Positions 7,088 to 23,686 of a stretch of DNA of 64,000 bases are shown in pieces. Numbering within the stretch: the stretch's first letter is position 1; each line of letters opens with the position of its first letter. The stretch is from Gemmatimonadaceae bacterium (GTDB taxonomy: Bacteria; Gemmatimonadota; Gemmatimonadetes; Gemmatimonadales; Gemmatimonadaceae), in the NCBI GenBank assembly GCA_045803545.1, contig JBJMOW010000005.1, positions 992,001 through 1,056,000 of the forward strand. Direction: 5' to 3'. The notes beneath the pieces are model-generated. The model did not search any database. It saw only the letters and a list, made by a program, of their open reading frames with translations, and had not been told where the DNA came from. Both the position numbers and the translations under genes were made by a program.

Positions 7088-7169
7088 CGGTTTGACTTCT
7101 TGAGGGCGCTAAGGAGTGTTTTTAGGGGTGTCCAAAGCAGCGGCATGTGCTCGCTCAATTTGCATTTAA

Positions 7170-8330
7170 CTAGAGCTGGCCAGTGAAAGCTCGATGCAGC
7201 AAGGATTTTTTCAGCGCTCCAAGCGCAGCGAGCTTGGTTTCGTATAGCGCTTCGAGGCGGCGCGTTTTGTGGGACAGTGACTCGATGCTCTCCACGAGAG
7301 TCACTTGCGCTGCTAGAGACTCTGGAATCGGAATCGGAATGGAATTCAACGCTTTTTGGGTCAGCTTTGGCTGAGCAGCGCCTCTGATATACTGGTCAAT
7401 CTGGATGGTCTCCAGGTAAAACTCGACGAATCGCTGGGTCGCGATGTTTTCAAACTTCAGTATGTGCGCATGATTGTTTACCCAATATTTCCCGGATACT
7501 GAAAATGCGATTGGCGTAGCTCTCATCAGCAAGTTTGCACCGTCTTCAGACACTAGTAGGGCATCGCAATCGAAGATGTAGTCGGCAACGCGATCGACGA
7601 TCCCCGAGGCTCCGTAATACGGATACTTGCCCGCTTTGCGCATGTTCCTTGTGATTGGAATTCGCCTGCTGTCCAGGTTAATCGAAACCTGATTTATGGT
7701 CTTTTCGACCCAACCCTCTCCGCGTCGGCGAAACAGCGCGTGAGTGTGACTTTTCAGAATGCTACGTGCGTTTTCAAGGTTCTTTTGAGCAGTGGCCTGA
7801 GCCCCCGCGATGCTCTCGAGTGCGTCTGTCATTGTTTCGACAATTCGCGTCTGCTCTGACAGCGGAGGAACCGGTATCGGCACCTTTCCGAGCTTCTCGC
7901 GGCTTATTCGCTTACGGGTAGTGCCCGTTGCCTCGGCGTCGACTGCCTGGAGGTACTCAGGTGTTCGACAGTATAGATCAAAAAACTCTGGAAGGAGTCG
8001 ACTCCGATCAAAACGAACAATTGTGCAATCGACGGCGGTGATCATGCGCTTGCCTGTATCCGGTACGATGCAGCTTCGACCAATGGGATCGGGCAGTCGG
8101 GAGATAAGGGAGTCGCCTTCGAAGATTTCTGTGCAGCGCAACCTCTTAAATGTCGTCTCCGAGATATGCCGTGCCTTCTCTCCTCGATCCTTAAAAACTC
8201 CCTCCCCTACGTTCCCAGTTTGAACAAGTCGAATTCCCTCTGACGACTGATCCTTGCTCTCCACCCAGTCGCCATCCGTGAAGACTTCACAAAGTTTCGC
8301 GAGTTGAACGGTTGGCCACGAATCATTCAC
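7170..8330 (-). CDS. hsdS: Type I R-M specificity subunit
   Basis: Two TRDs, IPVPPLSEQ and IPIP repeats, C-terminal LKKSLLHRAFTGQL. Confidence 0.93.
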   Translation of the reverse strand: MNDSWPTVQLAKLCEVFTDGDWVESKDQSSEGIRLVQTGNVGEGVFKDRGEKARHISETTFKRLRCTEIFEGDSLISRLPDPIGRSCIVPDTGKRMITAVDCTIVRFDRSRLLPEFFDLYCRTPEYLQAVDAEATGTTRKRISREKLGKVPIPVPPLSEQTRIVETMTDALESIAGAQATAQKNLENARSILKSHTHALFRRRGEGWVEKTINQVSINLDSRRIPITRNMRKAGKYPYYGASGIVDRVADYIFDCDALLVSEDGANLLMRATPIAFSVSGKYWVNNHAHILKFENIATQRFVEFYLETIQIDQYIRGAAQPKLTQKALNSIPIPIPESLAAQVTLVESIESLSHKTRRLEALYETKLAALGALKKSLLHRAFTGQL

Positions 8331-9781
8331 AAGATTGCCTTGATACTCTCGAGCAACTCCGCGCCCTCAGCATCCAAAGAAGCAATCTCGTTGATGATCT
8401 CTTGCGGACTACGATGGACGGCTTCCGGCCCCCTCGTCGGATTCCTGACCGACAAGTCAAAACTTTTCGTGTGAATAGTACTGGCCTCAATTGTCCAGCT
8501 CTTTGGCGAATTGGCAAACACTCGCTGCAGTTCGACAAACTCTGCGAGGTCCTTATCATTCAGCGGATTCGTCTTGCCGAGATTACGACCCGGTTCGAGC
8601 TGGTAGAACCAAATCGTCTTCGTCGGGGCACCCTTCTCGAAGAACAGCACAACCGTCTTCACTCCCGCTCCTTGGAAAGTCCCCGCTGGGCAGTCCAACA
8701 CCGTATGCAGATTGCAGCTTTCAAGCAACAATTTGCGGAGGCTAACGGACGCGTTATCGGTATTCGATAGAAACGTGTTTTTAATTACGAGGCCTGCCCG
8801 CCCTCCCGCTCTGAGAATCTTGATAAAGTGTTGGAGAAAGAGAAATGCCGTCTCTCCAGTACGGATGGGAAAGTTTTGCTGCACCTCCTTCCGTTCCTTC
8901 CCCCCGAATGGCGGGTTAGCCATCACAACTTCGAAGCGGTCCTTCTCCTGAATGTCAGACAGATTCTCGCTAAGGGTGTTTGTGTGCACGATGTTCGGCG
9001 CCTCGATCCCGTGCAGGATCATGTTCATGATCCCGATCACGTAGGCGAGCGGCTTTTTTTCTTTCCCGTAGAATGTGCTTTCCTGGAGCGTCCTCGACTC
9101 CTTCGTAGATAGCCCAGGCTTCCCTTTTAGGTACTCGAAGGACTCGCATAGGAACCCGGCAGAGCCAACGGCTCCGTCATAGATACGCTCACCAATCTTC
9201 GGCTGCACAACCTGCACGATGGCTCGAATCAGCGGACGGGGAGTGTAATACTCTCCGCCATTGCGCCCGGCGTTGCCCATATTTCTGATTTTCGCTTCGT
9301 AGAGGTGCGACAGCTCGTGCTTCTCGGTCTGCGAGCCGAATCTCAACTCGTCGATCTGATCGATGATTTCGCGCAGATTGTAGCCGGAGGTGATCTTGTT
9401 TTTTATCTCCCCGAAGATCTCACCAATCTTGTATTCGATCGTGTTCGGGCCAGTTGCACTCTGCTTAAAGCCGTGGAGATAGGGAAAGAGTTTGCCGTTG
9501 ACAAAATCGCGGAGATCGTCGCCGGTTTGTGCTTTGTTGTGATCGATCTGGCCATCGCTGCCTTTCGGCGCCGCCCAACTTTCCCAGCGGTAATCCTTAT
9601 CAAGAATGAAAGTCTGTTTCTTTCCGTGGAGCTCGGCCTCCAACCGCTTCTCCTGCTCGAGCGCGTCAAGGTATTTCAGGAATAGCAGCCACGATGTCTG
9701 CTCGGTGTAGTCCAACTCGGTCGTGCAGCCTGCTTCTTTCCTTAGGACGTCATCGATGTTCTTGAAGGCTTGCTCGAACAC
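8327..9781 (-). CDS. hsdM: Type I R-M N6-adenine methyltransferase
   Basis: GEYYTPR, DGAVGSAGFL and NPPF motifs. Overlaps the hsdS start. Confidence 0.95.
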   Translation of the reverse strand: MFEQAFKNIDDVLRKEAGCTTELDYTEQTSWLLFLKYLDALEQEKRLEAELHGKKQTFILDKDYRWESWAAPKGSDGQIDHNKAQTGDDLRDFVNGKLFPYLHGFKQSATGPNTIEYKIGEIFGEIKNKITSGYNLREIIDQIDELRFGSQTEKHELSHLYEAKIRNMGNAGRNGGEYYTPRPLIRAIVQVVQPKIGERIYDGAVGSAGFLCESFEYLKGKPGLSTKESRTLQESTFYGKEKKPLAYVIGIMNMILHGIEAPNIVHTNTLSENLSDIQEKDRFEVVMANPPFGGKERKEVQQNFPIRTGETAFLFLQHFIKILRAGGRAGLVIKNTFLSNTDNASVSLRKLLLESCNLHTVLDCPAGTFQGAGVKTVVLFFEKGAPTKTIWFYQLEPGRNLGKTNPLNDKDLAEFVELQRVFANSPKSWTIEASTIHTKSFDLSVRNPTRGPEAVHRSPQEIINEIASLDAEGAELLESIKAIL

Positions 9782-9929
9782 TGCAGCGTTGGGATAGAGG
9801 TTAGAGAAGCGGGCGTAGAAGCCCGGCTCCGCAATGGATATTCTACCGTCCCCGACTGGTGCCCAACATCTGTTGGGCCAGGCGAGTGCTGGACCGGAAG
9901 GCTAACCCATTGGTTTATTTAGCGTTGTA

Positions 9930-9974
9930 AATCGGGACGGCGGGATTTGAACCCGCGACCCCCTGAACCCCATT
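9930..9974 (-). repeat. att-like direct repeat: 3' 45 bp of tRNA-Pro(GGG)
   Basis: Identical to 13021-13065. Minus strand reads AATGGGGTTCAGGGGGTCGCGGGTTCAAATCCCGCCGTCCCGATT (anticodon loop, T-arm, acceptor 3' strand). Confidence 0.9.
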
Positions 9975-10169
9975 GACCCCAGCACTGTAATTGTAAGTCG
10001 TTGTAATCGCGCGCTTCCCATAGGGGAATATCGACATTTGGGCCAGCAATTCCGTGACTTGCCACGTGAGAATTTCGGAAATATTCGGCTCCGAAGTATT
10101 GATATCAATTCTTTTCACACTGTGAAATACCCAAAGTCGCAACAGGAATATCAAGGCCAAGGTCATGGA

Positions 10170-10490
10170 CTAAAATTTTCGTGCTGTCCGGAGCGGATCT
10201 GCGGGAGGGCGATTGGAAACAGTCAGGCTCTCAGGCGGTGCGTCCCATGGTCGCGCGTATTCTTCGACGCAGCGCATGATTAGATCGTCGTCGAGCCGTG
10301 CAGTTTCGGGAGTGCGGCCGCCAACGTTCTCCATCAAGCTTACTAACGCATCTATGATCTCACCTTGGCCGACTCCCATGCCCTTCGCCACCAGCACGTA
10401 GTGGCGTGCAGCTTCGGTGAGCAACGGTGATGCAGGTTTGTTGCCCTGCGCTCTCTTATACTCTTCGACAAATCGGTCAGCAGCGTTCAT
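10170..10490 (-). CDS. Small hypothetical protein
   Basis: ATGA overlap with the upstream gene. Ends ..LIMRCVEEY.., similar to 518-847. Confidence 0.55.
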   Translation of the reverse strand: MNAADRFVEEYKRAQGNKPASPLLTEAARHYVLVAKGMGVGQGEIIDALVSLMENVGGRTPETARLDDDLIMRCVEEYARPWDAPPESLTVSNRPPADPLRTARKF

Positions 10491-10723
10491 TTCTCTGCCC
10501 CGCCGTTGCCGTAGGTCCATCCTTCAAGGTCTTTCGGTATTCCAAGCGAGCCTAGATCAATTCCTGATGGAGGTGTGAATGTGTGACCACCAGCAACATC
10601 ATCGGCAGCCATGTGAGCGGAGACGTAGCTACCTAAGTCAGAGTCCTCGAAGAGCACGTGCCATCGGCCTTTTCGCTGAACTATACTGACCACGCCTTTC
10701 GCAGTCTTATAGTAGAAGTACAA
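10487..10723 (-). CDS. Small hypothetical protein
   Basis: Globular-looking 78 aa (GRWHVLFEDSDLGSY...AADDVAGGHTF). Confidence 0.6.
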   Translation of the reverse strand: MYFYYKTAKGVVSIVQRKGRWHVLFEDSDLGSYVSAHMAADDVAGGHTFTPPSGIDLGSLGIPKDLEGWTYGNGGAEK

Positions 10724-10794
10724 TGGTAGAATCCGATTCGAAGTTCGGCGCTCCTCGCTGCAAGAATCGTGGTTCGCCGTGTGCTTCGCTTCTG

Positions 10795-10992
10795 CTACTG
10801 GGACGAAGGCTTTGGCTGGATGGCGGGTTCAAAGAGGGCGTCCGCTTTTCCCCAATGGTGCTCTTGACGGCATGCCGGGCAGTTCACCGGACTCAGTTCA
10901 GCGGGCAAATTTTCGAAGATCGAGCGATCCATTGCGAAACCGGTGAAAACGAGCTTGCCGGTCGCTGGACACTTTATGAAAATTCGATTCAA
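10795..10992 (-). CDS. Small zinc-ribbon-like protein
   Basis: IKCPATGK...TG...CPAC..EHHW motif. Confidence 0.65.
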   Translation of the reverse strand: MNRIFIKCPATGKLVFTGFAMDRSIFENLPAELSPVNCPACRQEHHWGKADALFEPAIQPKPSSQ

Positions 10993-11042
10993 GTGTGTGC
11001 GCGTGAATGCGAGGCTTTTTCACCTGCAAGCGCAGTACCTCC

Positions 11043-11393
11043 TTACCATGCCGGTCCGCACTTCACAACGCGGACGGCGAGCCTGCACCACACCTGTAGG
11101 CGCTCGGCCGAACTCGCCTCCCAATCCTCGGGGACCGGGGCGAGTCGGCGCTTCTCCCCGTTCTCACTTTCGAAACAAAGCCAACCGAGCTCGTAGCCTG
11201 CCGGTACGACAAAGCTGCGTCGAAATGGGTTTAACCTGCGCCGGGTTATTCGCCGTTCGGGCCCGGTGTAAGGCGCGGCTGAGGTACCAACGGCGGCTCT
11301 GCGCTCTTTTTTGCGTCTCTCGGCAGCTGTCGGTAGGACGAGCCAAACCTCCCACCGGCGATTGTCTGAATCCCGGAAATTCCTGTAACCCAT
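11043..11393 (-). CDS. Hypothetical protein (W.VW...GWL.FES..E..RLAP.P..W family)
   Basis: Paralog of 11697-11963. RBS GGAGG upstream. Confidence 0.7.
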   Translation of the reverse strand: MGYRNFRDSDNRRWEVWLVLPTAAERRKKERRAAVGTSAAPYTGPERRITRRRLNPFRRSFVVPAGYELGWLCFESENGEKRRLAPVPEDWEASSAERLQVWCRLAVRVVKCGPAW

Positions 11394-11434
11394 TTCGGCT
11401 GGCCTCCAAGAGCGTCCCAGACAAGACTCTCTGA

Positions 11435-11450
11435 AGCACAGCCAGTGCCG
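11435..11450 (-). promoter_or_regulatory. Candidate sigma-54 (-24/-12) promoter
   Basis: Minus strand CGGCACTGGCTGTGCT (GG-N10-GC), about 40 bp upstream of ATG 11393. Confidence 0.4.
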
Positions 11451-11468
11451 CTTTCATGCAAACGCACG

Positions 11469-11708
11469 ATGGATAAACGAACTAAGGAACAACGTATCGC
11501 GCAGGCTCGTGCTGAGATAAAAAGGCGCATAGCGCGCGTCTGTCGAACGCTGCCCGAAGCGGAATTCGAGATTCTCTTAGATCGAATGACCGCGATTCAC
11601 TGCAAGTACGACATTTTTCCGCACATACCGGAGATCGCTCAACTGGCCGAGTTGGAGACTGCCATACAAGAGGAATTTCGAGCGTTCAAACGGCAACTAG
11701 GTTCCTGA
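11469..11708 (+). CDS. Small hypothetical protein
   Basis: MDKRTKEQRIAQARAEIKRRIARVC...EFEILLDRM...KYD, helical. Confidence 0.6.
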   Translation: MDKRTKEQRIAQARAEIKRRIARVCRTLPEAEFEILLDRMTAIHCKYDIFPHIPEIAQLAELETAIQEEFRAFKRQLGS

Positions 11709-11963
11709 CGGAATAATTTTCCCGTTTGACGATGGTTGCGGTCGCGTTGGTGAAGCCGTTTTCAAAAGCGCGCGCAACCTTGCATCGGAAAAGCTTTCCC
11801 AGTTTTTGGGAATCGGTGCGAGACGTTTACGCTCGTTGCTCGATTCGAAAGTGAGCCAACCCTTTTCAAATCCTTTGGAGAGAATCTTTCCTACTGTGGG
11901 TAGAGTCGCCCAAACTCTCCAAAGAACTTCAGCGGAATCAAGAAATTCTCTGTAAGGCATCAC
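11697..11963 (-). CDS. Hypothetical protein, paralog of 11043-11393
   Basis: Shares YREF.D...WRVW...GWLTFESSNERKRLAPIP..W. Confidence 0.7.
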   Translation of the reverse strand: MMPYREFLDSAEVLWRVWATLPTVGKILSKGFEKGWLTFESSNERKRLAPIPKNWESFSDARLRALLKTASPTRPQPSSNGKIIPSGT

Positions 11964-12087
11964 GCGATCCTGTGGTTTCGATTATAGCGCTCAATCCGTA
12001 GATCTACAGCGTCTTCCGCTGTTCGGTCCTTAGAAACCGGATAGAAACTTGGCGGCTCGCCCGGGCCTGCCGTCCTGCACAAGTGGA

Positions 12088-12879
12088 TCAGCTACCCGTA
12101 ATAACCGTGTCGCGTTTGTACGGCGCCGTCACTCTCAGCATTCCGTCGACCTCGCACCTATCGGCGAGGGCTGTTATCGTAAGCTCGTTCCTGGCGCCTG
12201 TGCGCGGCGGATTCAATTCAGTGTCCTCTGGCGACTCCACAACCGCGTCCGGGTTTGCCAGTGCCTCGATGTATTCGCATGCGAGCCGACGGGCTTCTGT
12301 TTCTTGCGCCTTGTCACCAACCCCGAGATCGGATCGACGGCACTTGACCGAGCAACTCGTCTGCTTCCCGTTGACCTTGCGGAAAATGTGCAGAATCTCG
12401 CCACGTCGAAACTCGCCGACGCGAACGGTGAACTCGGGGTGAAGCGGGTGCTTGATCCGCTGAACGGACCAAGTCTCTTCGGTTTCGTCTTCATTTGTTC
12501 TCCTTGAGATGGTGTGATCTAGCAATGCTTCGGACGGTGGCGTTGCTTGGAACGGACTTCGTGCGCGCTGGCCTTCCCCGACCACCGGGCGGCTGTGGGG
12601 AGGGAGGTCCTGGCGGCGGATGCGCGGCGCGTTGGTGCGACCTGCGTTAGCGATCTTGCCGCGTTTGACGAGGTTGCCCAGATAATCAGCGGTGTAGCCT
12701 GAGGCGCGGGCCGCTTCTGTGAGCGAAAGAGTTTCGGCGGCGAACAACGCTTGCGCGCGTTCAAGCTCGACGGCGGCGATGTCCCAGAGTCGGGCGCAAG
12801 CAGCATCGCCGAAACTGCGAAGGGTCTCCGCTCGCTCTCTCCAAAGAGCGGGCAAGTCGCCAGGAATGATTTTGTTCAT
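12088..12879 (-). pseudogene. Excisionase-like HTH gene fused to a probable truncated, frameshifted integrase N-terminus
   Basis: LSLTEAARASGYTADYLGNLVKRGKI (HTH_17-like). A separate AAGGAG-ATG at 12494 lies in another frame from the downstream protein-like segment. No catalytic domain is present. Adjacent to att. Confidence 0.5.
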
Positions 12880-13020
12880 ACGTCGCCAGTACAGCGAACT
12901 GCTCTTAACGAATGGCGACGGCAGCCCCAAAGTATTGCTAAAATTGCGGAACCGTAGCGGGGCTGGAAAAGCAAAAAACCCGCACGAGCGTAACTCGTTG
13001 CGAGTTGAAGCATTTATATC

Positions 13021-13074
13021 AATCGGGACGGCGGGATTTGAACCCGCGACCCCCTGAACCCCATTCAGGTGCGC
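13021..13074 (-). pseudogene. Truncated tRNA-Pro(GGG) lacking its 5' ~20 nt
   Basis: Anticodon stem CCTGA-ATGGGGT-TCAGG and T-arm GGTTCAAATC are intact. Upstream sequence cannot pair with the acceptor 3' strand CGTCCCG. Confidence 0.75.
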
Positions 13075-13120
13075 GGCTCAGTCGCGGAAAATCGGAAGAA
13101 GGCCGAATGCCTAACCAACG

Positions 13121-14437
13121 TCAGGCAGAAACGGCTGCTCTCAAAACCGTGCCACGCTCAGGTGTGCGGACCTCCCAGTCACCCTCTTGGGCAAGCGTTG
13201 CAAATAGCTTTGCGAAATCAGCACTGCGAAGAAGTGCGTCACAGATGGCTGGATCGAATTGCGTGGCTCTGAAGCGAAGCAATTCTTTGCGCACAGACTG
13301 CGCATCAAGCGCGGCGCGATAGGGACGATCGGTCGTCATCGCATCAATCGTATCCGCGAACATTATGATGCGAGAGCCAAGCGGAATTGCGTCACCCTTC
13401 AGGCCATCAGGGTAACCCGTGCCGTCCCAGTTTTCGTGATGGTGACGAATGAGCGGCACGACGTCTCTCAGTTCTGTGACCTTGGATGCGAGTTCTGCGC
13501 TCTTGACTGGATGCGTACGCATAATGACTTGCTCTTCCGGCGTCAGTCGCCCTGGCTTGCTGAGGATTGGGCCGAACACTTCATGGATTTTGCCTACGTC
13601 GTGCAAGAGCGCGGCGGCAACAATCCGCTCGATTTCGCGCGTGCTCAATCCGAATGACTTCGCGATGACTCGAGCCTTGTCAGCGACACGCCGAGAGTGT
13701 CCCGACGTATACGGGTCCCTGGCCTCTATTGCGGCAACCATTAACTCGAGCAACTCTCGATTCGTTTGTTCGAGTTGGCCTGTCACCTTGTAAAGCTGGC
13801 GCAAACCGAACAAAGGAATCGCAAAGACGAATACCCCAACTGGGCCGAATTTCGAATAGGTCCAGACAATCAGGAGAATGGCGGGCAGCGAAAGAAAATC
13901 ATATGGCAGAGCACGGAACGTGTTCTCTTTCCAAATCGCCCACACGCTTCTATCACCAACGATGCCGAGAGCCCCGCTAACGCAAATGGTATTCGTCATA
14001 AAGAAGACGAGGAACAGAGCGAACAGCGAGGGAGAACTGGATTCGGCGACACTGTGGAGCGGGACGCCGCCTATTGCAAGGTAGGTTAGAATCGCGAGCG
14101 ACATCCCGAGAGTTTGCTGTGCCGCATTGAAGACCGCGCGGATCGCTTCTCGCTTGGCAATCATCTGCCCGGCGAGCGAAGCTACGGCGACGACGGCGAC
14201 TGTTAGCCAGTGTGGCGCAATTGCCGCGCTCGCAAGCACAGGAATAAAAGACACCGACCCGAGAGAGCCATGACCGGTGCGGTAGGCGAAGAGATTCGTC
14301 AAAACTCCGACGAAGCCGAACGTCAACGCTGCCTGAGCAAAGGGCAACGCGAACGAGGGATCTCTCACAAACACGGCTACGCCTCCGCCGACAGCGGCGA
14401 TGCAAACTAGGAGAACGTAGCGGGCAATTCTGCTCAT
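13121..14437 (-). CDS. HD-GYP c-di-GMP phosphodiesterase with N-terminal multi-pass membrane sensor domain
   Basis: About 6-7 TM helices, then IEARDPYTSGHS, LLHDVGK, HHENWDGTGYP and DAMTTDRPYR. Confidence 0.92.
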   Translation of the reverse strand: MSRIARYVLLVCIAAVGGGVAVFVRDPSFALPFAQAALTFGFVGVLTNLFAYRTGHGSLGSVSFIPVLASAAIAPHWLTVAVVAVASLAGQMIAKREAIRAVFNAAQQTLGMSLAILTYLAIGGVPLHSVAESSSPSLFALFLVFFMTNTICVSGALGIVGDRSVWAIWKENTFRALPYDFLSLPAILLIVWTYSKFGPVGVFVFAIPLFGLRQLYKVTGQLEQTNRELLELMVAAIEARDPYTSGHSRRVADKARVIAKSFGLSTREIERIVAAALLHDVGKIHEVFGPILSKPGRLTPEEQVIMRTHPVKSAELASKVTELRDVVPLIRHHHENWDGTGYPDGLKGDAIPLGSRIIMFADTIDAMTTDRPYRAALDAQSVRKELLRFRATQFDPAICDALLRSADFAKLFATLAQEGDWEVRTPERGTVLRAAVSA

Positions 14438-14460
14438 AATTGGAAAACCCCCGTACTCGG

Positions 14461-14511
14461 CTACCACAGGATTGTGTCAGGGAAACACCATCTCAAAAAG
14501 GCAGCAAACAT
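14461..14511 (-). CDS. 16-aa Trp-terminal peptide MFAAFLRWCFPDTILW
   Basis: Manual translation ATG..TGG TAG. Strong RBS GGGAGGTG 6 nt upstream of the ATG. Stop is 23 nt before the HD-GYP start. Confidence 0.65.
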   Translation of the reverse strand: MFAAFLRWCFPDTILW

Positions 14512-14752
14512 TCGCGTCACCTCCCAAAATTCAGTCGCATCGAGCATTCGCTACGACGCGCTACATGGTTGGCTCCGCTCTTGTAACTAAGTTTGCCCGC
14601 TCAACTCGTCTCTAAGCCGGGAACGGGGGTTTTGTATTCCTATAGAATCCGTGTTAAAGGTGAAATCGCTTACACAGACAGTTTTTTACCAGATCTGACT
14701 AGATCTGCTTTCCACTTCCACCTTCTAGCCTGCACCGACTCCTTGGAGTCGC

Positions 14753-15481
14753 TTACTCTACCTGATCGACCCAGCGATTCGTTGCCGCCAGGACTGCCAG
14801 AGCGCTCGCTGTTTCCGCGCTCCCTTTGATCTCACAATTACCTACAAGCAATTGGCTGTCTCGTCCAGCCCGAACTGTCACTCCCACAAAAACGTACTCG
14901 CGATCGAAGGCCTCCATCACCTTCACACCCTCCACCGCCAGCTGTCCTTCCCTGCCCTCCGCACTGCCAATCGCGAATACCGTCGCGCGCGCTGCTAAAT
15001 CGAGTCGACTACGGTCGCCCTCGATCCCATGGGCTTCACCTATGAACGACTCCTCACCCTTCCGCAGCGTAACTCGGCAGGAAACCCCCTTGCTGCGACT
15101 GCCCCGCACCTCGACATCCTCGAAGTACAGCCGCCTGCCGGTGTATTTTCGGACCCCCTCGGCGGGCGTAAACTGCGGCGCCACGAACTGAGTGTGCGGC
15201 GTCGGCCGAGCGGCCTGCGGTTTTGGCTTCGGCTCACTGGTGATCGCCACCGAGATCTTCCGATGATCCACCCGCATCGCCAGGTGCGCCATCAACGCGC
15301 TCTCGATGTTGCGCACCACCTGCTTCGGCGTGAGCTCCGCCGTCGTCAGCACATGAATCTGTTCGACCGCGCCACTCTCACTCTCGATGATCTTTGCCGA
15401 AACCACTCCCGGCAGCGTGAGAATGAGCTCCTCGGCACGCTTGATCGGGAGTACGCTGCCGGCGATGTTGTTCAAGTTCAA
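14753..15481 (-). CDS. Conserved hypothetical two-domain protein
   Basis: IHVL....TPKQVVRNIESALMA...VDHRKISVA domain, linker, and alpha/beta C-domain ending AVLAATNR. Confidence 0.85.
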   Translation of the reverse strand: MNLNNIAGSVLPIKRAEELILTLPGVVSAKIIESESGAVEQIHVLTTAELTPKQVVRNIESALMAHLAMRVDHRKISVAITSEPKPKPQAARPTPHTQFVAPQFTPAEGVRKYTGRRLYFEDVEVRGSRSKGVSCRVTLRKGEESFIGEAHGIEGDRSRLDLAARATVFAIGSAEGREGQLAVEGVKVMEAFDREYVFVGVTVRAGRDSQLLVGNCEIKGSAETASALAVLAATNRWVDQVE

Positions 15482-15699
15482 CGCTGTCGGGGATTTAGGG
15501 CGGCTGGAAACAGGTGGCCAATATCGTGGACGACTGAGTTTTAATCAAGCAAAAATCCGGTGATACCCGCAGCCATTTGCTCACTGCAGAGTCGACCGGA
15601 TTTTTTTTGCTATTGCCAAAACAGAAAGAAGAGAAAAGTGTCGATTTTGTATCACCGCACTGCCGATTTTCTATCAGCGCAACAGCGGCGCTCCGACGA

Positions 15700-16293
15700 T
15701 TAGTCGACCTCGTCGACCGGCTCGTTCACCATGCAACGAACAGAGTCGACTGGATAGCGCTCGATCCGAAATGTCTGCGCGTTGAATCGCCAGGCTAGCC
15801 GAGGACGCGCCGTAGTATCGGCTTCGGTCACCAGGCCGACCACTCTGGGTACAGTCAAGCCGTTTGATTCGACGCAGAATCGCGCAAGGTATTCGAGATG
15901 CTGCATCCCCTCGACCACCACGCTGTCGGCGCGCGCGCGACCAACGCCGTGATCGTCGGTCGCTCTGACAGCAGTGTCGAACCAGATCACCATCAAGCCC
16001 GACGGACGCCGAACGTGCGAGCCGACGAGGAATTCCGCCGAGACCGACTGCAGGTCTCCCGTCTCCAGGTACCAATCTCCCTCGCTCGAGTCGGGAGCCA
16101 CGATCCGAAACTCGGGAAGGGCGTTCTCCTCCAGAGCGTCGCCGTTTTGCTGCGATGCAACCGGAGGCGACGACACCGCTGCCGATGCGGTCGACGATGC
16201 CGCGGTTTGCTTTACCGGAGTCGCCGCGCGCTCGCAGCAGAGACAAGCGAGTAAGGCGACGACAGCTCCGATCCGGCTCACAGGTTGACCCAC
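15700..16293 (-). CDS. Hypothetical lipoprotein
   Basis: Signal peptide ending LACLCC. Overlaps the upstream gene's end. Confidence 0.65.
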   Translation of the reverse strand: MGQPVSRIGAVVALLACLCCERAATPVKQTAASSTASAAVSSPPVASQQNGDALEENALPEFRIVAPDSSEGDWYLETGDLQSVSAEFLVGSHVRRPSGLMVIWFDTAVRATDDHGVGRARADSVVVEGMQHLEYLARFCVESNGLTVPRVVGLVTEADTTARPRLAWRFNAQTFRIERYPVDSVRCMVNEPVDEVD

Positions 16294-18137
16294 CGAACTA
16301 CCTGCCAGCCGCTCGCCGTTCGATTCAGAATACAGAGCAAACGCTCAGAACCACTTCGCATTACTTCGACTATCGCCTGCTTGCGCTGAGCGCTCAAGCC
16401 GATCGCGCTGAACGAGAGCGAATATTGAGCGTTCGGCCAGGCCTGCTGCATGACGTCCGCGTCGCTGAACGCGTTGCCGCGCGCGGTGGCTCGCTCGAGC
16501 GCAACGATCGCCGAATCGCCGACAACGACGACACCGGGCCGAGCCGGAAAGTCGGGGCGGAAATCACGCCGCTGCTCACGCACCGAGAGAAAGTTCTCCA
16601 TCGCCGACAGCATTACCCGCGGCTCGTAACGTATGCGACGCTGGTAATCCTGATTGCACGATGCGCGGTTGCACGCGGAGCGCGTCGCACCGTACACCAG
16701 GATCATCTTCCCCGGGTCCGGCGATCCAAGCCGATCGAGCGCAGCCGCGTAAACGGCACCTTCCTCGGCGTTCGGGTAAGCCGAGTTGCGAGCTCGCGCA
16801 GCGTCGAACTCGTTCTGCATCGGCACGTTTACCTTCGGCTGAATAATCTGCGGCTGCGATGGTGGCGTCATCGCCTGCTGCTGCGCGGCTGATGGTGTAT
16901 CGTCGCAAATGGCGCGATCTATTTGCACGTTTACCTCGACGCTTTGACCAATGGCGACGTCCGTGGCTGTCACTGCCGCCAGGGTGTCCGGGCGACTGCT
17001 CGCTTTTGGACACCGCACCATCAGGCCTGCACCGCCCACTAAGACACCGTCGAAGCGATAGTCCCCGCGGAAATCCGAGTCGACCCACCAGACGCTGTTC
17101 GGTTGGGCATCCATATGGAGCTCGATTTTCGCGCCCGACAGCGGCTTGCCATCGCGTGTGGTGATCCGACCATGGATGTCGCGCGGCAATGCTGCCTGAC
17201 GAATCGAATCGCGCCGCGCCGACTCTTTTATTTCGTTGAGCGGCGTGTGCTTTCCGACTCCGCGGTAGCGCAACGATTCATTTCCCAGATCGGTCGAGTC
17301 TCCTTCTTCCGGAACGCGCTCGATCACGTGCCACTGCCCGCGTACTTTCCACAGAACCATCGTTTCGGTGCTGTGGCAATACGTTCCGCATTGATGCAGA
17401 ACCTGCAGAATCGCTTCGTTCTTCTGCGGATTCATTCCGACGACTGAGAGCACGGCGACGCCCCATGCGTGCGGATACCTCGCCTGAAATCCGAGCCAGA
17501 ACGGCACCTCGCGCATTCCGATTCGCCTGCCTGCCGCGCTGTCGCGCGCTGCGATCTCGCGTCCATCGATCTCCATCTCACGCTGCTCCGTCTCGCCCAT
17601 CAGCGTGAGCGGAATGTGATACTTGAACTTCGGCGTGATGTGTCGACGGTTCAGCCTCGCAATGCGATAGGCGTCGACGGTCTCGAGCTTCGGCTCACTG
17701 CCCGTCCCCATTGGAAGGATCGGACACGGCATCTTTGAACACGTCCAGACCCCGGTGATCGCGAAGTCGTTGAGCACGACCTGGCCGGGAAATCCATCCT
17801 TCGAGACGTATAGCATGTCGAGCACCGCGCGATAAACGTCGGCGGTGTCACCCGTTGGATAATCGGCTTTGTTGGTGAGGAAATCGCCGGGCTTCACTCC
17901 TGGCCGCAGATGCGCCGCCGCAAACGCGTGCATCGCTTCTGGGCTCGACTCCGGAACGACGACACCCTGCGCAGGAGTCGACGACGACGCGGACACCTGC
18001 TGCGCCGCCTTCGACGTATCGAGCGTCGCAGAAGATTTCGCGCGCTCACACGCGATCGAGCCGGCAACTGCTATGATGCACGAGGCAGCGCCAATCCTGC
18101 GCGCTCTCGTCAAAAGACGGGACCAGATCATCCCCAT
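16278..18137 (-). CDS. Lipoprotein with a carboxypeptidase-regulatory-like domain between two similar domains
   Basis: SIAC lipobox and IHGRITTRDGKPLSGAKI..SD.RGDYRF. Repeated (D/A)VY.A.LD.L and S..G......AI..V segments. Confidence 0.7.
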   Translation of the reverse strand: MGMIWSRLLTRARRIGAASCIIAVAGSIACERAKSSATLDTSKAAQQVSASSSTPAQGVVVPESSPEAMHAFAAAHLRPGVKPGDFLTNKADYPTGDTADVYRAVLDMLYVSKDGFPGQVVLNDFAITGVWTCSKMPCPILPMGTGSEPKLETVDAYRIARLNRRHITPKFKYHIPLTLMGETEQREMEIDGREIAARDSAAGRRIGMREVPFWLGFQARYPHAWGVAVLSVVGMNPQKNEAILQVLHQCGTYCHSTETMVLWKVRGQWHVIERVPEEGDSTDLGNESLRYRGVGKHTPLNEIKESARRDSIRQAALPRDIHGRITTRDGKPLSGAKIELHMDAQPNSVWWVDSDFRGDYRFDGVLVGGAGLMVRCPKASSRPDTLAAVTATDVAIGQSVEVNVQIDRAICDDTPSAAQQQAMTPPSQPQIIQPKVNVPMQNEFDAARARNSAYPNAEEGAVYAAALDRLGSPDPGKMILVYGATRSACNRASCNQDYQRRIRYEPRVMLSAMENFLSVREQRRDFRPDFPARPGVVVVGDSAIVALERATARGNAFSDADVMQQAWPNAQYSLSFSAIGLSAQRKQAIVEVMRSGSERLLCILNRTASGWQVVRWVNL

Positions 18138-18294
18138 AAAGACGCCCAAGCGCTGCGCCTCGCCACGTCTTTGGGCCTCGGCAGATACGCCGAGCGTTCG
18201 AGCCAATCAGGGGTTCCCCGCCATCCAATCTGAAAACGAAACGGAGAACGTTCGTGTCTCGCTTACGCGCCGGCCATTGGCCGTGAGTTAGCCG

Positions 18295-18933
18295 CTAGAA
18301 GTGAATCCCCAGACCGATCGGCATGAACACGGACCTCGATCGCTTGGAACCCTCCGGCCATGCATTCGCGCGAATGAAAGCGTGGACTCTGCTCTCGATC
18401 GTGACCGACCACTTCTCGCCGGGCAATCTCAGGCCGGCGCCAAGTGTCCATCCAGCTTTCACCCCAGCTCCCTGCATGCCGTAAGCGCCCGCACCGGCGA
18501 GAAGATACGGCGCAACTTTCTTCGACGAGATCGGCGTGAAAACCAGGTTACCGGTTAGTGCGGTAAGGTGCTGACCCCAGTCCGCAAATAACAGGTCAGC
18601 CCGCGGACGGATCATCCGCAGCGGCGATGGCATCGTAAGCGTTGTCTGCATGTAGTAGCCGAAACCGCCCGGCTCGAACTGAGGAACACCGCCGATGATA
18701 AGAGGAAGTCCGGCGTCGGACGCCCGCACGAAGCCGCTTGAAAGCCCCAGTGAGAACCCGCTGTCCCCTGCTTGCGCGCGTACGGCGTTCGGCAACACGC
18801 ACAATGCCACAACCAATGAAAAGACAAGACCCCGATTCGCGTACCCGTTTTTCGCAATCATCAGTGAGAAACCCTCCATTACTGACCAGTATGTGCGTCG
18901 GGACCGACGCAATCCACGCTCATTCTCTATCAA
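18295..18933 (-). CDS. Outer-membrane beta-barrel protein (OmpA/OmpW-like membrane domain)
   Basis: Signal peptide, PYLLAGAG strand and terminal GLGIHF. Start probably near 18861. Confidence 0.75.
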   Translation of the reverse strand: MIENERGLRRSRRTYWSVMEGFSLMIAKNGYANRGLVFSLVVALCVLPNAVRAQAGDSGFSLGLSSGFVRASDAGLPLIIGGVPQFEPGGFGYYMQTTLTMPSPLRMIRPRADLLFADWGQHLTALTGNLVFTPISSKKVAPYLLAGAGAYGMQGAGVKAGWTLGAGLRLPGEKWSVTIESRVHAFIRANAWPEGSKRSRSVFMPIGLGIHF

Positions 18934-18968
18934 GGATGGTCAGTTTTCTATCACGGATGGTTGCTCTA

Positions 18969-18997
18969 CCCGCCTCCCGCCTCCCGCCTCCCGCCTC
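18969..18997. repeat. Heptamer tandem repeat (CCCGCCT)n
   Basis: Four units immediately after the mrdA stop. Confidence 0.85.
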
Positions 18998-20789
18998 ACC
19001 CCTCGTCCATCGTCGCCTGAATCGGCGAGACCTTGAGGAAATGCGAAATGATCGCGGAGGCGATGCGCGCCGCCCTCCAACCGTGCAACCCGAACTCGAG
19101 CAGCACTGCCACTACGATCTTCGGATGATCGGCGGGTGCGAAGCCAACGAACCAGCCGTGATCCGGGCCGCCGGTGTTTTGCGCGCTTCCCGTTTTTCCG
19201 GCGAGCACTGCTTTTTCACCGGTTGCCATCACGCCCTGGAACTGAGATCCGGCAACAGCCGCGGTGCCGCCTTCCTGTGCCACCGCCTTCAATCCCTCCA
19301 GCAGCGTTGCCTGCAGTTGCGGTGGTAGCGAATAAATCTCTTTGCGCTGCGGCACCAGGTGAGCGATTTCAGGTCGCGCTGCTTTTCCACCAGTGGCGAG
19401 CGCGGTATAAAACTTCGCCATGTTCACGACAGTCTGTGAATTCGCGCCCTGCCCGATCGCCAGGTTCAACGTTTCAGCGTTACTCCACCCGCGCGCGCCG
19501 TACTTGTCGTTGTAGTACTGGATCGCATACGGCCAGTACGGCTGGTTCTCTTCCGGCAGATCGATTCCCGATCTGTCGCGCATGGTGAGGTTGATGCCGC
19601 CGGCGATCAGCTTGGTCAAGCCAATCTTGAGACCGAGCTGATAGAAATACACGTCACACGAATGCTTGATCGCACCGAGCAGATCCACGGATCCATGTCC
19701 GCTGTGGTCCCAGCAGCGGAAATAACGGCTGCCGTACTGATAACCGCCGGTGCACGGAACCGGCATGTGCTCGGTCGGAGTTACCAGACCATCCTCGAGT
19801 GCGATGATACTCGTGGCAAGCTTGAAGGTTGAGCCGGGCGGATATCGTCCCTGAATCGTCTTGTTGACGAGCGGACGACGCTTGTCCTCGAGCAGCGACT
19901 TGTAGTAGTCGACTGGAATGCCGCCGGTGAACTTGTTCGGATCCCAGCTCGGCGCCGAGTACAGTGCCAGCACTTCACCGGTGGTGGGATCCATGGCGAT
20001 CGCACCACCCTGCAGTGAGTCGGCAAAGATGTCGGCCATGAACTTCTGCAGATCGAGATCGATGTTGGTGTAGAGCGGTGGCGCGCCAACGGGATCGAGA
20101 TCCGGCCGCGCGCCTTCATCCCGTACCGGACGGCCGCGCGCATCGACCTCGTCGAATTTCACGCCCTCGCGTCCGTGCAGAATGTTCTCGTACTGCTTCT
20201 CGAGACCCGCCTTCCCGATCTCCTGCCCCGGCTTGTAGGTCGCGTACTTCGGATCGTTCAGCTCATTCTCGGTGATCTCACCGGTGTAGCCGACGAAGGA
20301 TGCCACCATCGGCCCATCCGGATAGTACCGCTTGGGAACGGACTGAATGATCAGCCGTGGGAAATCGAGCCGATGCTCCTCGAGAACCGAAACGATATCG
20401 ATCGAGGCATCGGGAATGATTACCGTCGGTCGAGTTGGCGCGCGACGGTATCGCCTCACCGCCAGGTTGATGTCGTTCTGGGTCAGCTGAAGCGTCGGCG
20501 CGAGCTGGGCGAGTGCGCCTCGCAAGCTATCGACGCTTGGTGCAGTGATCGACACCGAGTAAGCAGGAAGATTCTCCGCGATCACCTGGCCATGACGGTC
20601 ATAGATGATTCCCCTCGGCGCGGGCAGAGGAATTGGTCGCAGGCGATTCTCCTGCGACTGCAGGACATACTGCTTGTGCTGTAAAACCTGGGTTTTGAAA
20701 AAAGCGCCGATGAGAATGAGAAACGCGCCCATCAGCGCCCACGAGCTCATTCGGGAGCGGCGCGCAACGTCGTTCGGGTGAGAGGTCAT
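18996..20789 (-). CDS. mrdA: Penicillin-binding protein 2
   Basis: APRGIIYDR, YPPGSTFK (SxxK), SCD and KTG motifs. Confidence 0.93.
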   Translation of the reverse strand: MTSHPNDVARRSRMSSWALMGAFLILIGAFFKTQVLQHKQYVLQSQENRLRPIPLPAPRGIIYDRHGQVIAENLPAYSVSITAPSVDSLRGALAQLAPTLQLTQNDINLAVRRYRRAPTRPTVIIPDASIDIVSVLEEHRLDFPRLIIQSVPKRYYPDGPMVASFVGYTGEITENELNDPKYATYKPGQEIGKAGLEKQYENILHGREGVKFDEVDARGRPVRDEGARPDLDPVGAPPLYTNIDLDLQKFMADIFADSLQGGAIAMDPTTGEVLALYSAPSWDPNKFTGGIPVDYYKSLLEDKRRPLVNKTIQGRYPPGSTFKLATSIIALEDGLVTPTEHMPVPCTGGYQYGSRYFRCWDHSGHGSVDLLGAIKHSCDVYFYQLGLKIGLTKLIAGGINLTMRDRSGIDLPEENQPYWPYAIQYYNDKYGARGWSNAETLNLAIGQGANSQTVVNMAKFYTALATGGKAARPEIAHLVPQRKEIYSLPPQLQATLLEGLKAVAQEGGTAAVAGSQFQGVMATGEKAVLAGKTGSAQNTGGPDHGWFVGFAPADHPKIVVAVLLEFGLHGWRAARIASAIISHFLKVSPIQATMDEG

Positions 20790-20805
20790 GCTGTGATACT
20801 CTTCC

Positions 20806-21813
20806 TCATTGTCTGACGTCACGAAGAACTTCACGAACCGCGCCAATCACCGCCTCCGGCGCCTCAGCCGGAATGTCATGGCCGCTGTTGGCGACGATCA
20901 CCTGCTTTCCATGCGTCGACAGGCGCGCCAGCTTCGGCTGGATCTCGTGCATCCAGACCTGCTCATATGCGACGCCCTGCTTATCCATATCGGTCACCGG
21001 CGCCGATTGCTGCACTTTCCCTCTCGTCAGCACGATGACAGGTCGGTCGCCAAAACCCCCGGCTGACTCTGCCTCGCGATAGCTCTCGGGTCCCGACGCG
21101 TCGGCGAGACTGGCCATCGTCTTCGGTTGACTGCGCAGCGCAGCAAGGATCTGCGCGCGGGTGCGCTGCGCCGGATCGCTCGGGAGCGATCGTGATGGCG
21201 TCATCAATCGGATGACGCCGAGCAAGCGCGCGGTCTGCGCGCCAATCCAGATCGGATGCCAGAGAACCCTCGGCGCAGTGTGGCCGAGCATGAACGCCGG
21301 CGCGCGGCGCGGCTCATCCTCGTGCGCGGCGTCGACAAATACGACGCCAGCGATTTCCGTTGGGTACATCGCGTTGTAGATGCGCGCATTCAGTCCGCCG
21401 AGCGAATGGCCGACGTAAATGAAAGGCATCGGGATCCCGGCGCGATGAAGCAGCTGGTGCAAATCGGAGGACATCGCCTCGCTGGTGCGCGGGAATGGAC
21501 CGATGTCGCTCCAGCCGAATCCCGCGCGATCGAACGAGCACGCGCGAGTCTGCTTCGCGATCTCGGCCTGGACATCTGACCACTGCAAGCCAGGAAAGCC
21601 GGCGCCGGAGTCGAAGATGACAGCGGGAGCTCCTTCGCCGGAGCAATCGATGTTGAGGCTCCGACCACCGATGTCCACCGCGCGCCCAATCCTCGGCAGC
21701 CGTCGCGCGTCGTTGCGTTCACCGATCTGCCCGTAAACCGCCCCGACGATTACAGTCGCGAGCAATACGCCTGCGAAAATCCAGGCCAGCCGTTTGTGCA
21801 CGTCAGTCACCAA
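20806..21813 (-). CDS. Membrane-anchored alpha/beta hydrolase
   Basis: DRAGFGWS, GHSLGG and SGHDI. Confidence 0.88.
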   Translation of the reverse strand: MVTDVHKRLAWIFAGVLLATVIVGAVYGQIGERNDARRLPRIGRAVDIGGRSLNIDCSGEGAPAVIFDSGAGFPGLQWSDVQAEIAKQTRACSFDRAGFGWSDIGPFPRTSEAMSSDLHQLLHRAGIPMPFIYVGHSLGGLNARIYNAMYPTEIAGVVFVDAAHEDEPRRAPAFMLGHTAPRVLWHPIWIGAQTARLLGVIRLMTPSRSLPSDPAQRTRAQILAALRSQPKTMASLADASGPESYREAESAGGFGDRPVIVLTRGKVQQSAPVTDMDKQGVAYEQVWMHEIQPKLARLSTHGKQVIVANSGHDIPAEAPEAVIGAVREVLRDVRQ

Positions 21814-21828
21814 TGCATCGATGATCTG

Positions 21829-22794
21829 CTACCTGCAGTCGGCGCGCGGTGTCGGCAATGAACGGCCGTCGACGAGTGAGCGCGGTGTCGATGGCGTCAC
21901 CGGTGTCGACAGGCTACGCGCCGCGCTGAGATCACGTCGCAGCTCGCCGAGTCGAAGGAAATTTCCGGCTTCGGTGGTCGACTGCAGCGAGGGGCTCGCC
22001 GCGCCGTCCCCCCAATAGTCGCTGTGATCGGCGCCGGTGATAGTGACGCCTTTGAGGGTCCTGTTCCAACCCGGCATCATCACGCTCGGACCGTAGCGGC
22101 CGAGCGCGCGCTGCGACGCCTCGCTCTTGCCGGCGAGCGATTGTCCGGGGGGAAATGCCCAGTGCAGCACCTTGTCGTCGAGCGAGTGCAGCACGCGGAC
22201 TTCTATGCCTTCCGCCCACAGCTGCATCAGCAGGTCGAAGAATTTTCCACCCGGCTCGAGCATTTCCGACGGCACTGCCGGCGCCATCAGCACCACTCGC
22301 CCAGCTTTCGGTAGTGCGCGCTTTCTGAGAAGCAGCAGCGTCTCCAGCACTACGCGCGCCCCGAGTGAGTGGGCGATGAAGTCGACCCGCTCGAGATTGG
22401 GGAGCTTCGCCAGCAATGAATCGAGATCCTTCGCAGCACTGATAGCGGTGTGCACCGCGGTCGGATAAATCAGAAAGTCGAGCTTGTCGAAGAATCCCCA
22501 CTGCGCGTCGCCCGGCCAGAAGGTGTCGCTGAACAGTGCTTCGAATGCGTCGGGATCGACCGAACCGAATAGCGCGCGCTCGCGTTTTCTGAATGCGAAG
22601 TAGGCAGTAGCAGCACCGCCGTCACTGTTATTGAAGCCGTGCACAAGTACGAGACAGCTTCTGCGAGCGAGTGCTTCCGGCAACAGGCCGTGAAAGACGG
22701 CGGGGTCGAGCAGCTTGCCGCCTTCCTTCTCGCGCCGCAGGTAAAGCTCGAGCCACGGCGAGTAGCCGCACGGACGCTTCGAATTCTTACCCAT
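21829..22794 (-). CDS. Alpha/beta hydrolase (DUF900-like)
   Basis: VHGFN, AHSLG, D.VL and HSDYW. Confidence 0.8.
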   Translation of the reverse strand: MGKNSKRPCGYSPWLELYLRREKEGGKLLDPAVFHGLLPEALARRSCLVLVHGFNNSDGGAATAYFAFRKRERALFGSVDPDAFEALFSDTFWPGDAQWGFFDKLDFLIYPTAVHTAISAAKDLDSLLAKLPNLERVDFIAHSLGARVVLETLLLLRKRALPKAGRVVLMAPAVPSEMLEPGGKFFDLLMQLWAEGIEVRVLHSLDDKVLHWAFPPGQSLAGKSEASQRALGRYGPSVMMPGWNRTLKGVTITGADHSDYWGDGAASPSLQSTTEAGNFLRLGELRRDLSAARSLSTPVTPSTPRSLVDGRSLPTPRADCR

Positions 22795-23686
22795 TTCTGA
22801 CTTTCTGCAGCGCGGTGACGAGATCCTTTGCCACCGGCGCGAGAATTCCGCCGACGAGTGAGATCGGAATCATCGACATCGAGAACGAATTGGCCAGCGC
22901 GCCCCAGGTGATTTCCCCACTGCCCTCGGCGGCCCAGCGCGCGAACATCAGCGACACCAGCATCACGATGATGCCCGTGATGTTCGCCGCCAGCTGATTC
23001 CAGTTGGCCCAGCTGTCCGACGTATAGAGCTGGAATCCATCCAGCTTTCCTTTTACAGTCTGTCTGAGACGAGCGATCAGCTCGCTCTGTCGCTTGACCT
23101 CTTCCTTTTGCTGTTCTTCAGGAAGATTCGCCGCGTTGAACAGCGCCGACGGACCGTTGCGCAGCCAGCTCTCGATATCACCGCGACTTGCACCCACAGT
23201 CAGAACGCGATACAGGCTTTCGTATTGCTGCGGATTGGCGAGCACGATATCCGATACTTCCTGGATGCTGCCCATCATCCGCTCCAGCTCCAGCGCAAAG
23301 ACGGCGTGCGCCGGATTGCGATTCTGGGTGTAGCCGCCCGAGAGTCCACGGAGTTGGATCAGCTGCTGGGCAGCGACAGTGCCATCCTCAGGCGAGACGC
23401 CGGTGGTGAGCTGCAGCAATTGCGTCAGCGCATGCTCACCTCGATGCGGGTCGGAGTTCGCGGACTTCGCGTTATTCATCATCCACTCCGTCCACCGCCG
23501 CGCCTGAAACTTGGTGCGCTTATCGAGCAGCTTTTTCCACAGCTCGATGAACGCCATCGAGAACGCGCCAATGGCAATCAGCGGGGTGAGATACTTGAGC
23601 AGAAAGTCGGTGAGCTGATACACCGCCTTGCCGACATCCGTCGCGGGTGTTGCGTCCTGCACCAACAGAATGAGATACATGCGCAC
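22787..23686 (-). CDS. Hypothetical membrane protein
   Basis: One N-terminal and two C-terminal TM segments. Overlaps the hydrolase start. Confidence 0.75.
   Translation of the reverse strand: MRMYLILLVQDATPATDVGKAVYQLTDFLLKYLTPLIAIGAFSMAFIELWKKLLDKRTKFQARRWTEWMMNNAKSANSDPHRGEHALTQLLQLTTGVSPEDGTVAAQQLIQLRGLSGGYTQNRNPAHAVFALELERMMGSIQEVSDIVLANPQQYESLYRVLTVGASRGDIESWLRNGPSALFNAANLPEEQQKEEVKRQSELIARLRQTVKGKLDGFQLYTSDSWANWNQLAANITGIIVMLVSLMFARWAAEGSGEITWGALANSFSMSMIPISLVGGILAPVAKDLVTALQKVRNG

Follow-up and report, generated by a model that had tools for sequence, protein, structure and literature searches.

Here we report a gene of 16 codons that lies within a structured RNA leader in front of a membrane-sensor HD-GYP phosphodiesterase gene of a Gemmatimonadaceae bacterium (assembly GCA_045803545.1, contig JBJMOW010000005.1, positions 992,001 to 1,056,000). 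This stretch of 64,000 nucleotides (nt) is referred to as the window, and positions are counted within it. Judged by comparison with related loci, the short open reading frame (micro-ORF) is a real gene and belongs to a phylum-wide family of hydrophobic peptides that end in Trp or in Trp plus one further residue (W or W-x). The presence of leader and micro-ORF throughout Gemmatimonadota suggests an undescribed way of switching the enzyme on. A search of bioRxiv and of the literature outside subscription journals found no account of such a system.

The original prediction, made from the letters of the window, had described a 16-codon ORF with its ribosome-binding site (RBS), a 23-nt gap, a gene for a membrane sensor with an HD-GYP domain, and an upstream gene at 14753-15481; all of these were confirmed from the sequence, the ORF list and Pfam. 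The micro-ORF (14461-14511, minus strand) encodes MFAAFLRWCFPDTILW followed by a stop codon and is the inner portion of a listed ORF of 28 codons (14461-14547). Immediately 5' of its ATG stands GGGAGGTGACGCGA, a strong RBS, and its stop codon (14463-14461) is separated by 23 nt from the ATG of the HD-GYP gene (14437).

A conserved family of short hydrophobic peptides

Loci for comparison were taken from relatives, from a sample of 401 genomes of the phylum, from chosen distant genomes and from public genome contigs that were reached through the upstream gene, here called UP. The tallies over the 401 genomes take in four unpublished genomes (G186, G089, G211 and G128). An RBS-led ORF was present just upstream of the HD-GYP gene at 17 of 17 loci in the first set, where the ORF of L018 continues for 82 codons, and at all 30 loci of family f1, two of which duplicate earlier loci and a single one of which, L054, comes from the unpublished genome G186. 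The same was found at 20 of 20 loci from other families, other orders and a second class.

Under a single calling rule, 61 of the 80 genome-contig loci carried the ORF; among the remainder, L135 has a 35-codon variant with a TTG start and the other 18 contigs stop at most 389 nt past UP. Genomes that had been left unmatched by a single-protein MASE9 query yielded the ORF at 16 of 20 loci, including all 15 with enough sequence, and each of these 15 also has an HD-GYP gene behind the ORF. The earlier claim that the micro-ORF is tied to homologous sensors had come with a proposed check for a conserved small ORF upstream of them. That check was run, and an RBS-led ORF of 14-35 codons was found in the same position at every related locus with enough sequence, far beyond what chance would give.

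The 118 loci that fall under the calling rule encode 103 distinct peptides of 14-31 amino acids (aa), and the sole longer form is the 35-codon TTG-start variant (at L053 and L135). Trp is the final residue in 24 of the 103 peptides and the penultimate one in 73 (97 in total), and it holds neither place in 6, which bears out the W-terminal character that had been proposed. The peptides are rich in hydrophobic residues (L 17%, A 13%, F 9%, W 7.6%) and carry on average 0.67 Lys and Arg residues each; the longest run free of D, E, K, R, H, Q, N and P has a median of 10 residues and a range of 4-20. At L068 (oriented 1443-1508) the end of the micro-protein is a tandem duplication of the last six residues, with a Trp closing each copy.

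Differences between 32 same-length pairs, which are not independent of one another, fall on the three codon positions in the ratio 139:73:262. Pooled over these non-independent pairs, the proportion of nonsynonymous differences (pN) is 0.155 and that of synonymous differences (pS) is 0.488, with a pN/pS of 0.32. L076 and L078, for instance, differ by one residue and by 15 third positions. Among the 21-aa peptides, conservation is highest in the N-terminal hydrophobic portion, and purifying selection spans the whole peptide, not the tail alone. By its substitution pattern and its conserved N-terminal part, the ORF is therefore a gene under selection for the sequence of its product.

Three loci may represent decaying copies, and sequencing errors are a further possible cause. 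The micro-ORF of L018 has no stop codon, the region from micro-ORF to HD-GYP domain is split into several ORFs in L014 and L018, and the HD-GYP match of L017 is divided between two frames.

A structured leader that encloses the micro-ORF

The leader of the MASE9-HD-GYP gene comprises about 190 nt, micro-ORF included, and in the alignments the approximately 110 nt 5' of the micro-ORF are better conserved than the ORF itself. The RNA of the window (14435-14646) folds at -76.2 kcal/mol (z -3.92), and this fold reproduces three helices, P1, P2 and P3 (Table 1). Alignments and folds together indicate that the leader is a conserved structured RNA with a motif absent from Rfam: a scan of 12000-16500 against Rfam 15, at E up to 1, assigned it to no family and returned only an 18-nt fragment resembling tmRNA and a chance Xoo8 match elsewhere. 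With a covariance model of the leader, a single copy was found in the genome of the window, and a second hit at E 0.62 was judged to be noise.

P1 is a long-range helix in which the leader's 5' end is joined to a segment that begins at the stop codon of the micro-ORF and takes in the G-run. RNAalifold recovered its core from a 57-locus alignment (A3). Over these loci, 77.8% of the cells of 18 specified pairs, which had been derived from the window sequence itself, are paired, vs 66.4% after shuffling, and none of 500 shuffles reaches the observed value. With a score of 0.338, covariation exceeds the 0.10-0.20 obtained for partners slid by 1-3 columns, and 17 of the 18 pairs change on both sides. 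P1 also appears in the minimum-energy folds of 99 of the 103 distinct sequences, vs 213 of 515 shuffles. Its 3' arm starts at a median of 1 nt past the stop codon (range -2 to 23, n = 100), and the stop codon falls inside this arm in 25 of the 100 sequences. Covariation thus backs P1 as a predicted RNA helix that links the end of an upstream ORF (uORF) to the downstream initiation region.

P2 involves the Shine-Dalgarno (SD) sequence of the micro-ORF. In family f1, GCGGAGCCAACC pairs with GGGAGGUGACGC in a helix that has two internal loops, and RNAalifold on 30 f1 leaders gave 8 pairs, all invariant, in agreement with the minimum-energy fold of the window. The SD region is nearly invariant over the 57 loci and is paired both in the consensus and in the minimum-energy folds. 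In 29 leaders of other families the predicted anti-SD helix is built differently and shows some compensatory changes; there GAGCGUC pairs with GACGCUC, and an anti-SD of the CUUCC type pairs with the SD. Counting the SD core as paired at >=3 of 5 bases, with matched controls, it was found paired upstream in 91 of 103 minimum-energy folds vs 191 of 515 shuffles; a threshold of >=4 of 5 is too strict for an internal loop within the SD.

In hairpin P3, 7 of 8 pairs are preserved through changes on both sides in the 30 f1 leaders, and an equivalent hairpin covaries in a second clade. Conserved, unpaired GAG-N2-GAG elements are located between P1 and P2. They number 1.94 per leader vs 0.16 in dinucleotide shuffles; out of 109 leaders, which are homologous and hence not independent, 106 contain them.

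Just 5' of the leader, a TTCACC...TATAGG arrangement (14635-14666, minus strand) is conserved within the genus and may be a promoter; it was not called by a scan for the sigma-70 consensus, which gave 0 sites over 12900-15700. The interval between UP and the leader contains no terminator-like site.

Table 1. Features of the micro-ORF locus, in the order of the minus strand, and contigs from RNA libraries that cover it.
Feature	Position	Strand	Evidence or remark
UP, 242 aa, co-oriented, syntenic	14753..15481	-	start may be the second TTG, at 15475
P1, 5' arm, AAAACCCCCGUUCCCGGCUUA	14613..14633	-	covariation counts, folds
Purine-rich GAG-N2-GAG-N2-GAG element, GAGACGAGUUGAGCGGGC, unpaired in the consensus fold	14595..14612	-	alignments
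P2, 5' strand, anti-Shine-Dalgarno, GCGGAGCCAACC	14567..14578	-	inside the third GAG-N2-GAG element (14580-14573)
P3, hairpin enclosed by P2	14534..14564	-	covariation
Shine-Dalgarno region, GGGAGGUGACGC, also P2 3' strand	14514..14525	-	alignment and folds
Micro-protein gene, 16 codons and stop, MFAAFLRWCFPDTILW	14461..14511	-	sequence, ORF list, orthologous ORFs, pN/pS
P1, 3' arm	14444..14463	-	starts in the micro-ORF stop codon and extends over the G-run, 10 nt 5' of the HD-GYP ATG
MASE9 membrane sensor domain fused to HD-GYP phosphodiesterase domain, 438 aa	13121..14437	-	Pfam, PDB relatives
RNA-library run X20	14480-15481		single contig of a relative, UP and leader
RNA-library run X15	14633-14845		
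RNA-library run X16	14531-14699		
RNA-library run X19	14456-14617		leader and entire micro-ORF

The sensor enzyme and the upstream gene

The gene behind the leader is, by its sequence, a member of the HD-GYP phosphodiesterase family, with hydrolysis of cyclic di-GMP (c-di-GMP) as the predicted activity. The HD-GYP domain (PF13487 HD_5) was found at E 3.2e-34, and its translation contains the motifs HDVGK and HHENWDGTGYPDGL. MASE9 (PF20972) matches residues 30-210 with 27.3 bits, over a cut-off of 24.3, and reached 29 bits, again above the cut-off, in the search of the whole genome; the profile also has matches in the control genomes of Thermus thermophilus and Thermotoga maritima. Among PDB structures, the relatives of the HD-GYP domain (13124-13822, minus strand) are 5z7c (E 4e-38, the best) and 4mcw (E 1e-30). 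The former is V-cGAP3, a phosphodiesterase specific for 3'3'-cyclic GMP-AMP (3'3'-cGAMP), and the substrate may therefore not be c-di-GMP.

The authors who defined MASE9 consider that its ligand is probably bound within the membrane (bioRxiv 10.1101/2021.11.05.467447). When the MASE9 domain (49-row alignment) and the 16-aa peptide were modelled as a complex, without controls, the score was 0.21 against a mark of 0.32 and speaks neither for nor against binding. The idea that the micro-ORF is a detached first transmembrane helix of MASE9 was rejected, as the enzyme retains its own N-terminal helix.

UP contains PKQVVRNIESAL and matches no family of Pfam or NCBIfam. It adjoins the sensor gene in 17 of 19 loci (of the other two, one lies on a truncated contig and one is broken) and in 19 of 20 loci from distant genomes, and this synteny across the phylum upholds the view that the three genes form one module. 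UP was found in 313 of the 401 sampled genomes. Among the best 80 of 579 related loci, only Gemmatimonadota are represented, and all others seen are likewise Gemmatimonadota. By the names that UP homologues bear, the organism of the window belongs to the Gemmatimonadaceae.

An AlphaFold model of UP, with a predicted local distance difference test (pLDDT) of 86.5, consists of an N-terminal alpha-beta-beta-alpha-beta domain, a disordered linker and a C-terminal (beta-beta-beta-alpha)x2 domain. At Z 8-9, which is a generic range, the N-terminal domain is similar to the C-terminal domains of cation-diffusion-facilitator transporters and to other ferredoxin-like modules. The C-terminal domain has the fold of the isoleucine/leucine-binding regulatory domain of citramalate synthase/LeuA, with no Pfam membership: residues 116-239 align with 3f6g_B at Z 9.8 and a root-mean-square deviation of 3.1 over 110 of 115 residues, and Foldseek matched the domain to 3hpz_A at E 1.3e-5. 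By these two resemblances UP is thus similar to a stand-alone sensor of small ligands with no recognisable output domain, and on its modelled structure it looks like a ligand-sensor-like protein of the same conserved module, seen in Gemmatimonadota only.

A subset of the f2 genomes has a gene for a 199-aa response regulator (HTH_17 and receiver domains) between UP and the leader (L008:3083-3682, minus strand; also L009, L079, L166, L169 and L171). This gene splits UP from the leader, and the micro-ORF therefore stays with the HD-GYP gene. In many f2 genomes the UP profile has two or more matches, which indicates an UP paralogue elsewhere in the genome.

Neighbouring genes and RNA-library contigs

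According to Pfam, the neighbours of the module are hypothetical proteins, a CarboxypepD_reg protein, PBP2, hydrolases and a type I restriction-modification island. Pfam scans of the neighbours from 4772 to 23686 revealed no ATP-binding cassette (ABC) exporter, peptidase or peptide-modifying gene. Upstream of UP lie a 197-aa protein without a family that has a lipoprotein-like N-terminus (15700-16293, minus strand) and a 642-aa protein with a CarboxypepD_reg domain (16278-18206, minus strand).

Just downstream of the HD-GYP gene, 18 nt (13031-13048, minus strand) match the 3' end of tmRNA or the T-arm of a tRNA; the 64-kb window contains no intact tRNA. Beyond this match follow a 280-aa ORF without a family (12088-12930, minus strand) and then the type I genes hsdM, hsdS and hsdR (4772-9781, minus strand). 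The 18-nt match and the restriction-modification genes look like an island integrated at an attachment site of the tRNA/tmRNA type.

Contigs from soil RNA libraries of four studies, which do not show transcript ends or strand, cover parts of the leader, the micro-ORF and UP (Table 1). They hint weakly at transcription and perhaps at co-transcription with UP. The body of the HD-GYP gene is represented in such contigs only by short conserved pieces from other organisms, and its non-coverage is not evidence.

Interpretation

Our combined reading, which we hold at roughly even chances, is that a translated micro-ORF in a structured leader is gated and couples the output of the enzyme to a small hydrophobic peptide that partners with MASE9. 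Opening of P2, by some trigger, would admit ribosomes to the micro-ORF, and a ribosome that reaches the Trp and stop codons would have to melt P1. Melting of P1 would expose the initiation region of the HD-GYP gene, and enzyme and peptide would be made together by translational coupling. Within the membrane, the hydrophobic peptide would then be a small partner or regulator of MASE9, not a secreted pheromone. UP would belong to the same module, perhaps as the sensor of a ligand.

Several observations weigh against this reading. Both the translation of the micro-protein and its contact with the sensor are predictions, and DNA carry-over may account for the RNA-library contigs. For a classical transmembrane helix, many of the peptides look too short or too polar (down to 14 aa, with a median of 10 residues for the longest stretch that lacks charged or polar residues). 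P2 lacks covariation support in f1 because its pairs are invariant in the 30 leaders, and end pairing resembling P1 is frequent (41%) in shuffles of these GC-rich sequences. At some f2 loci the HD-GYP start codon and its SD are located downstream of P1 and not within it, and sequestration of the initiation region is therefore not universal. Finally, a Trp in the last or penultimate codon that abuts P1 is explained at least equally well by positioning of the ribosome in cis.

This last point leads to the main rival, a purely cis-acting sensor uORF, which we regard as possible but on the unlikely side. A pause at the terminal Trp or stop codon, caused by low charging of Trp-tRNA or by an arrest of the TnaC type, would hold P1 open and set the translation of the HD-GYP gene. 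The last or penultimate Trp codon in 97 of the 103 peptides, the start of the P1 3' arm at a median of 1 nt past the stop and the gating of the SD by P2 would all be expected. The ribosomal exit tunnel can hold peptides of this length, and those found here (14-31 aa, with one variant of 35 codons) would fit wholly inside it. However, a single Trp codon is the usual case, whereas classical attenuators have tandem ones, none of the known arrest motifs was recognised, and both selection and hydrophobicity extend over the whole peptide, the N-terminal part being the best conserved in the 21-aa group. Selection over the whole length and the hydrophobic composition argue for a role of the peptide itself besides its function in cis. 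The cis-acting and the partner-peptide readings are compatible and do not exclude each other.

The original prediction had also named a leader peptide as an alternative. It is right in part, as the ORF is embedded in a structured leader by which its translation is tied to the region where the HD-GYP gene starts.

An unlikely explanation is that the leader is mainly an RNA that binds a ligand or a trans-acting factor (a riboswitch, a thermometer or a protein site) and that the micro-ORF is only its expression platform. It would agree with the superior conservation of the approximately 110 nt upstream of the ORF, with the enrichment of conserved, unpaired GAG-N2-GAG elements (1.94 vs 0.16 in shuffles; 106 of 109 leaders) and with sequestration of the SD in two distinct architectures. 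Against it, the leader has no match to any Rfam family at E up to 1, it is single-copy in the genome and so offers no regulon that would point to a ligand, and the selection on the peptide sequence is left unexplained. TRAP and CsrA were not found in the genome, which is 93% complete, and TrpBP (PF02081) had 0 matches there.

A more elaborate scheme, built by analogy and in our view distinctly improbable, would assign the trigger to UP. UP would be a cytoplasmic sensor with two domains of allosteric type and, loaded with a small ligand, would bind the GAG-N2-GAG elements by the logic of HutP or TRAP, with an unrelated fold. As one GAG repeat is the anti-SD strand of P2, such binding would therefore free the RBS of the micro-ORF, its translation would unzip P1, the HD-GYP gene would be switched on, and the peptide would serve as the intramembrane ligand or subunit for which a need of MASE9 has been predicted.

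The original prediction had favoured an exported, perhaps cleaved peptide, the C-terminal W piece of which is an extracellular pheromone sensed by MASE9. We now give this little credence: the peptide gene does adjoin a polytopic membrane sensor, the C-terminal Trp is conserved and Trp-bearing ComX with its sensor ComP offers an analogy, but the peptides (14-31 aa) have no signal-like basic N-terminus (mean of Lys and Arg 0.67) and no conserved cleavage motif, their N-terminal part is also under selection, no ABC exporter, peptidase or modifying enzyme was found by Pfam among the neighbours (4772 to 23686), and the periplasmic segments of MASE9 are short, with a ligand site that the defining preprint proposes to be intramembrane (bioRxiv 10.1101/2021.11.05.467447).

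A micro-protein that is constantly encoded in the leader of the sensor gene is a concrete candidate partner for the widespread MASE9 domain, and the SD-sequestering and long-range helices offer a testable post-transcriptional route by which the breakdown of c-di-GMP could be switched on. The module of UP, leader, micro-ORF and HD-GYP gene is nearly universal in the sampled Gemmatimonadota. These bacteria are abundant in soil and include cultured members, which makes the predictions open to laboratory tests. The peptides also constitute a selected gene family of 14-31 codons that gene callers overlook.

Comparison with known systems

By analogy, the system shares its logic with several known kinds of regulation and belongs to none; the peptides, the leader RNA and UP are all without assignment to a known family. 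One likeness concerns HutP and TRAP, oligomeric proteins that are activated by a ligand and bind repeated (G/U)AG triplets in a leader beside their own gene. Here, too, GAG triplets spaced by 2 nt occur in a leader, with a gene for a ligand-sensor-like protein directly upstream. In contrast, there are only about 5 triplets, and UP has no detected relation to HutP or TRAP in sequence or fold; binding of RNA by UP would be pure conjecture.

The c-di-GMP-I and c-di-GMP-II riboswitches of Rfam are comparable in that a conserved leader with a sequestered SD precedes a c-di-GMP phosphodiesterase gene; here, however, the leader is unmatched by any Rfam model at E up to 1, and the regulated ORF is a micro-protein gene. 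ComX-ComP, a Trp-bearing short peptide pheromone with a polytopic membrane sensor, resembles the present pairing in both partners and differs from it in having what is missing here, namely a nearby modifying or export gene, a precursor-like length and a cleavage motif.

Control by a uORF or leader peptide through RNA unfolding operates in MifM-yidC2, SecM-secA and TnaC-tnaAB. As in these systems, the ribosome on a short upstream ORF should melt a helix at the downstream initiation region. What differs is that the helix here is long-range, with one arm at the leader's 5' end, the other at the stop codon of the micro-ORF and the whole ORF enclosed between them; in addition, the ORF has its own SD sequestered, carries no known arrest motif and encodes a peptide that is hydrophobic along its entire length.

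MgrB-PhoQ represents the regulation of a sensor by a small membrane protein. The peptides reported here are shorter (14-31 aa), end in Trp and are encoded inside the structured leader of the sensor gene itself, the output of the sensor is an HD-GYP phosphodiesterase and not a kinase, and the role as a partner is a predicted one. What the two would have in common is a very short hydrophobic protein that is encoded beside a membrane sensor and presumably acts on it.

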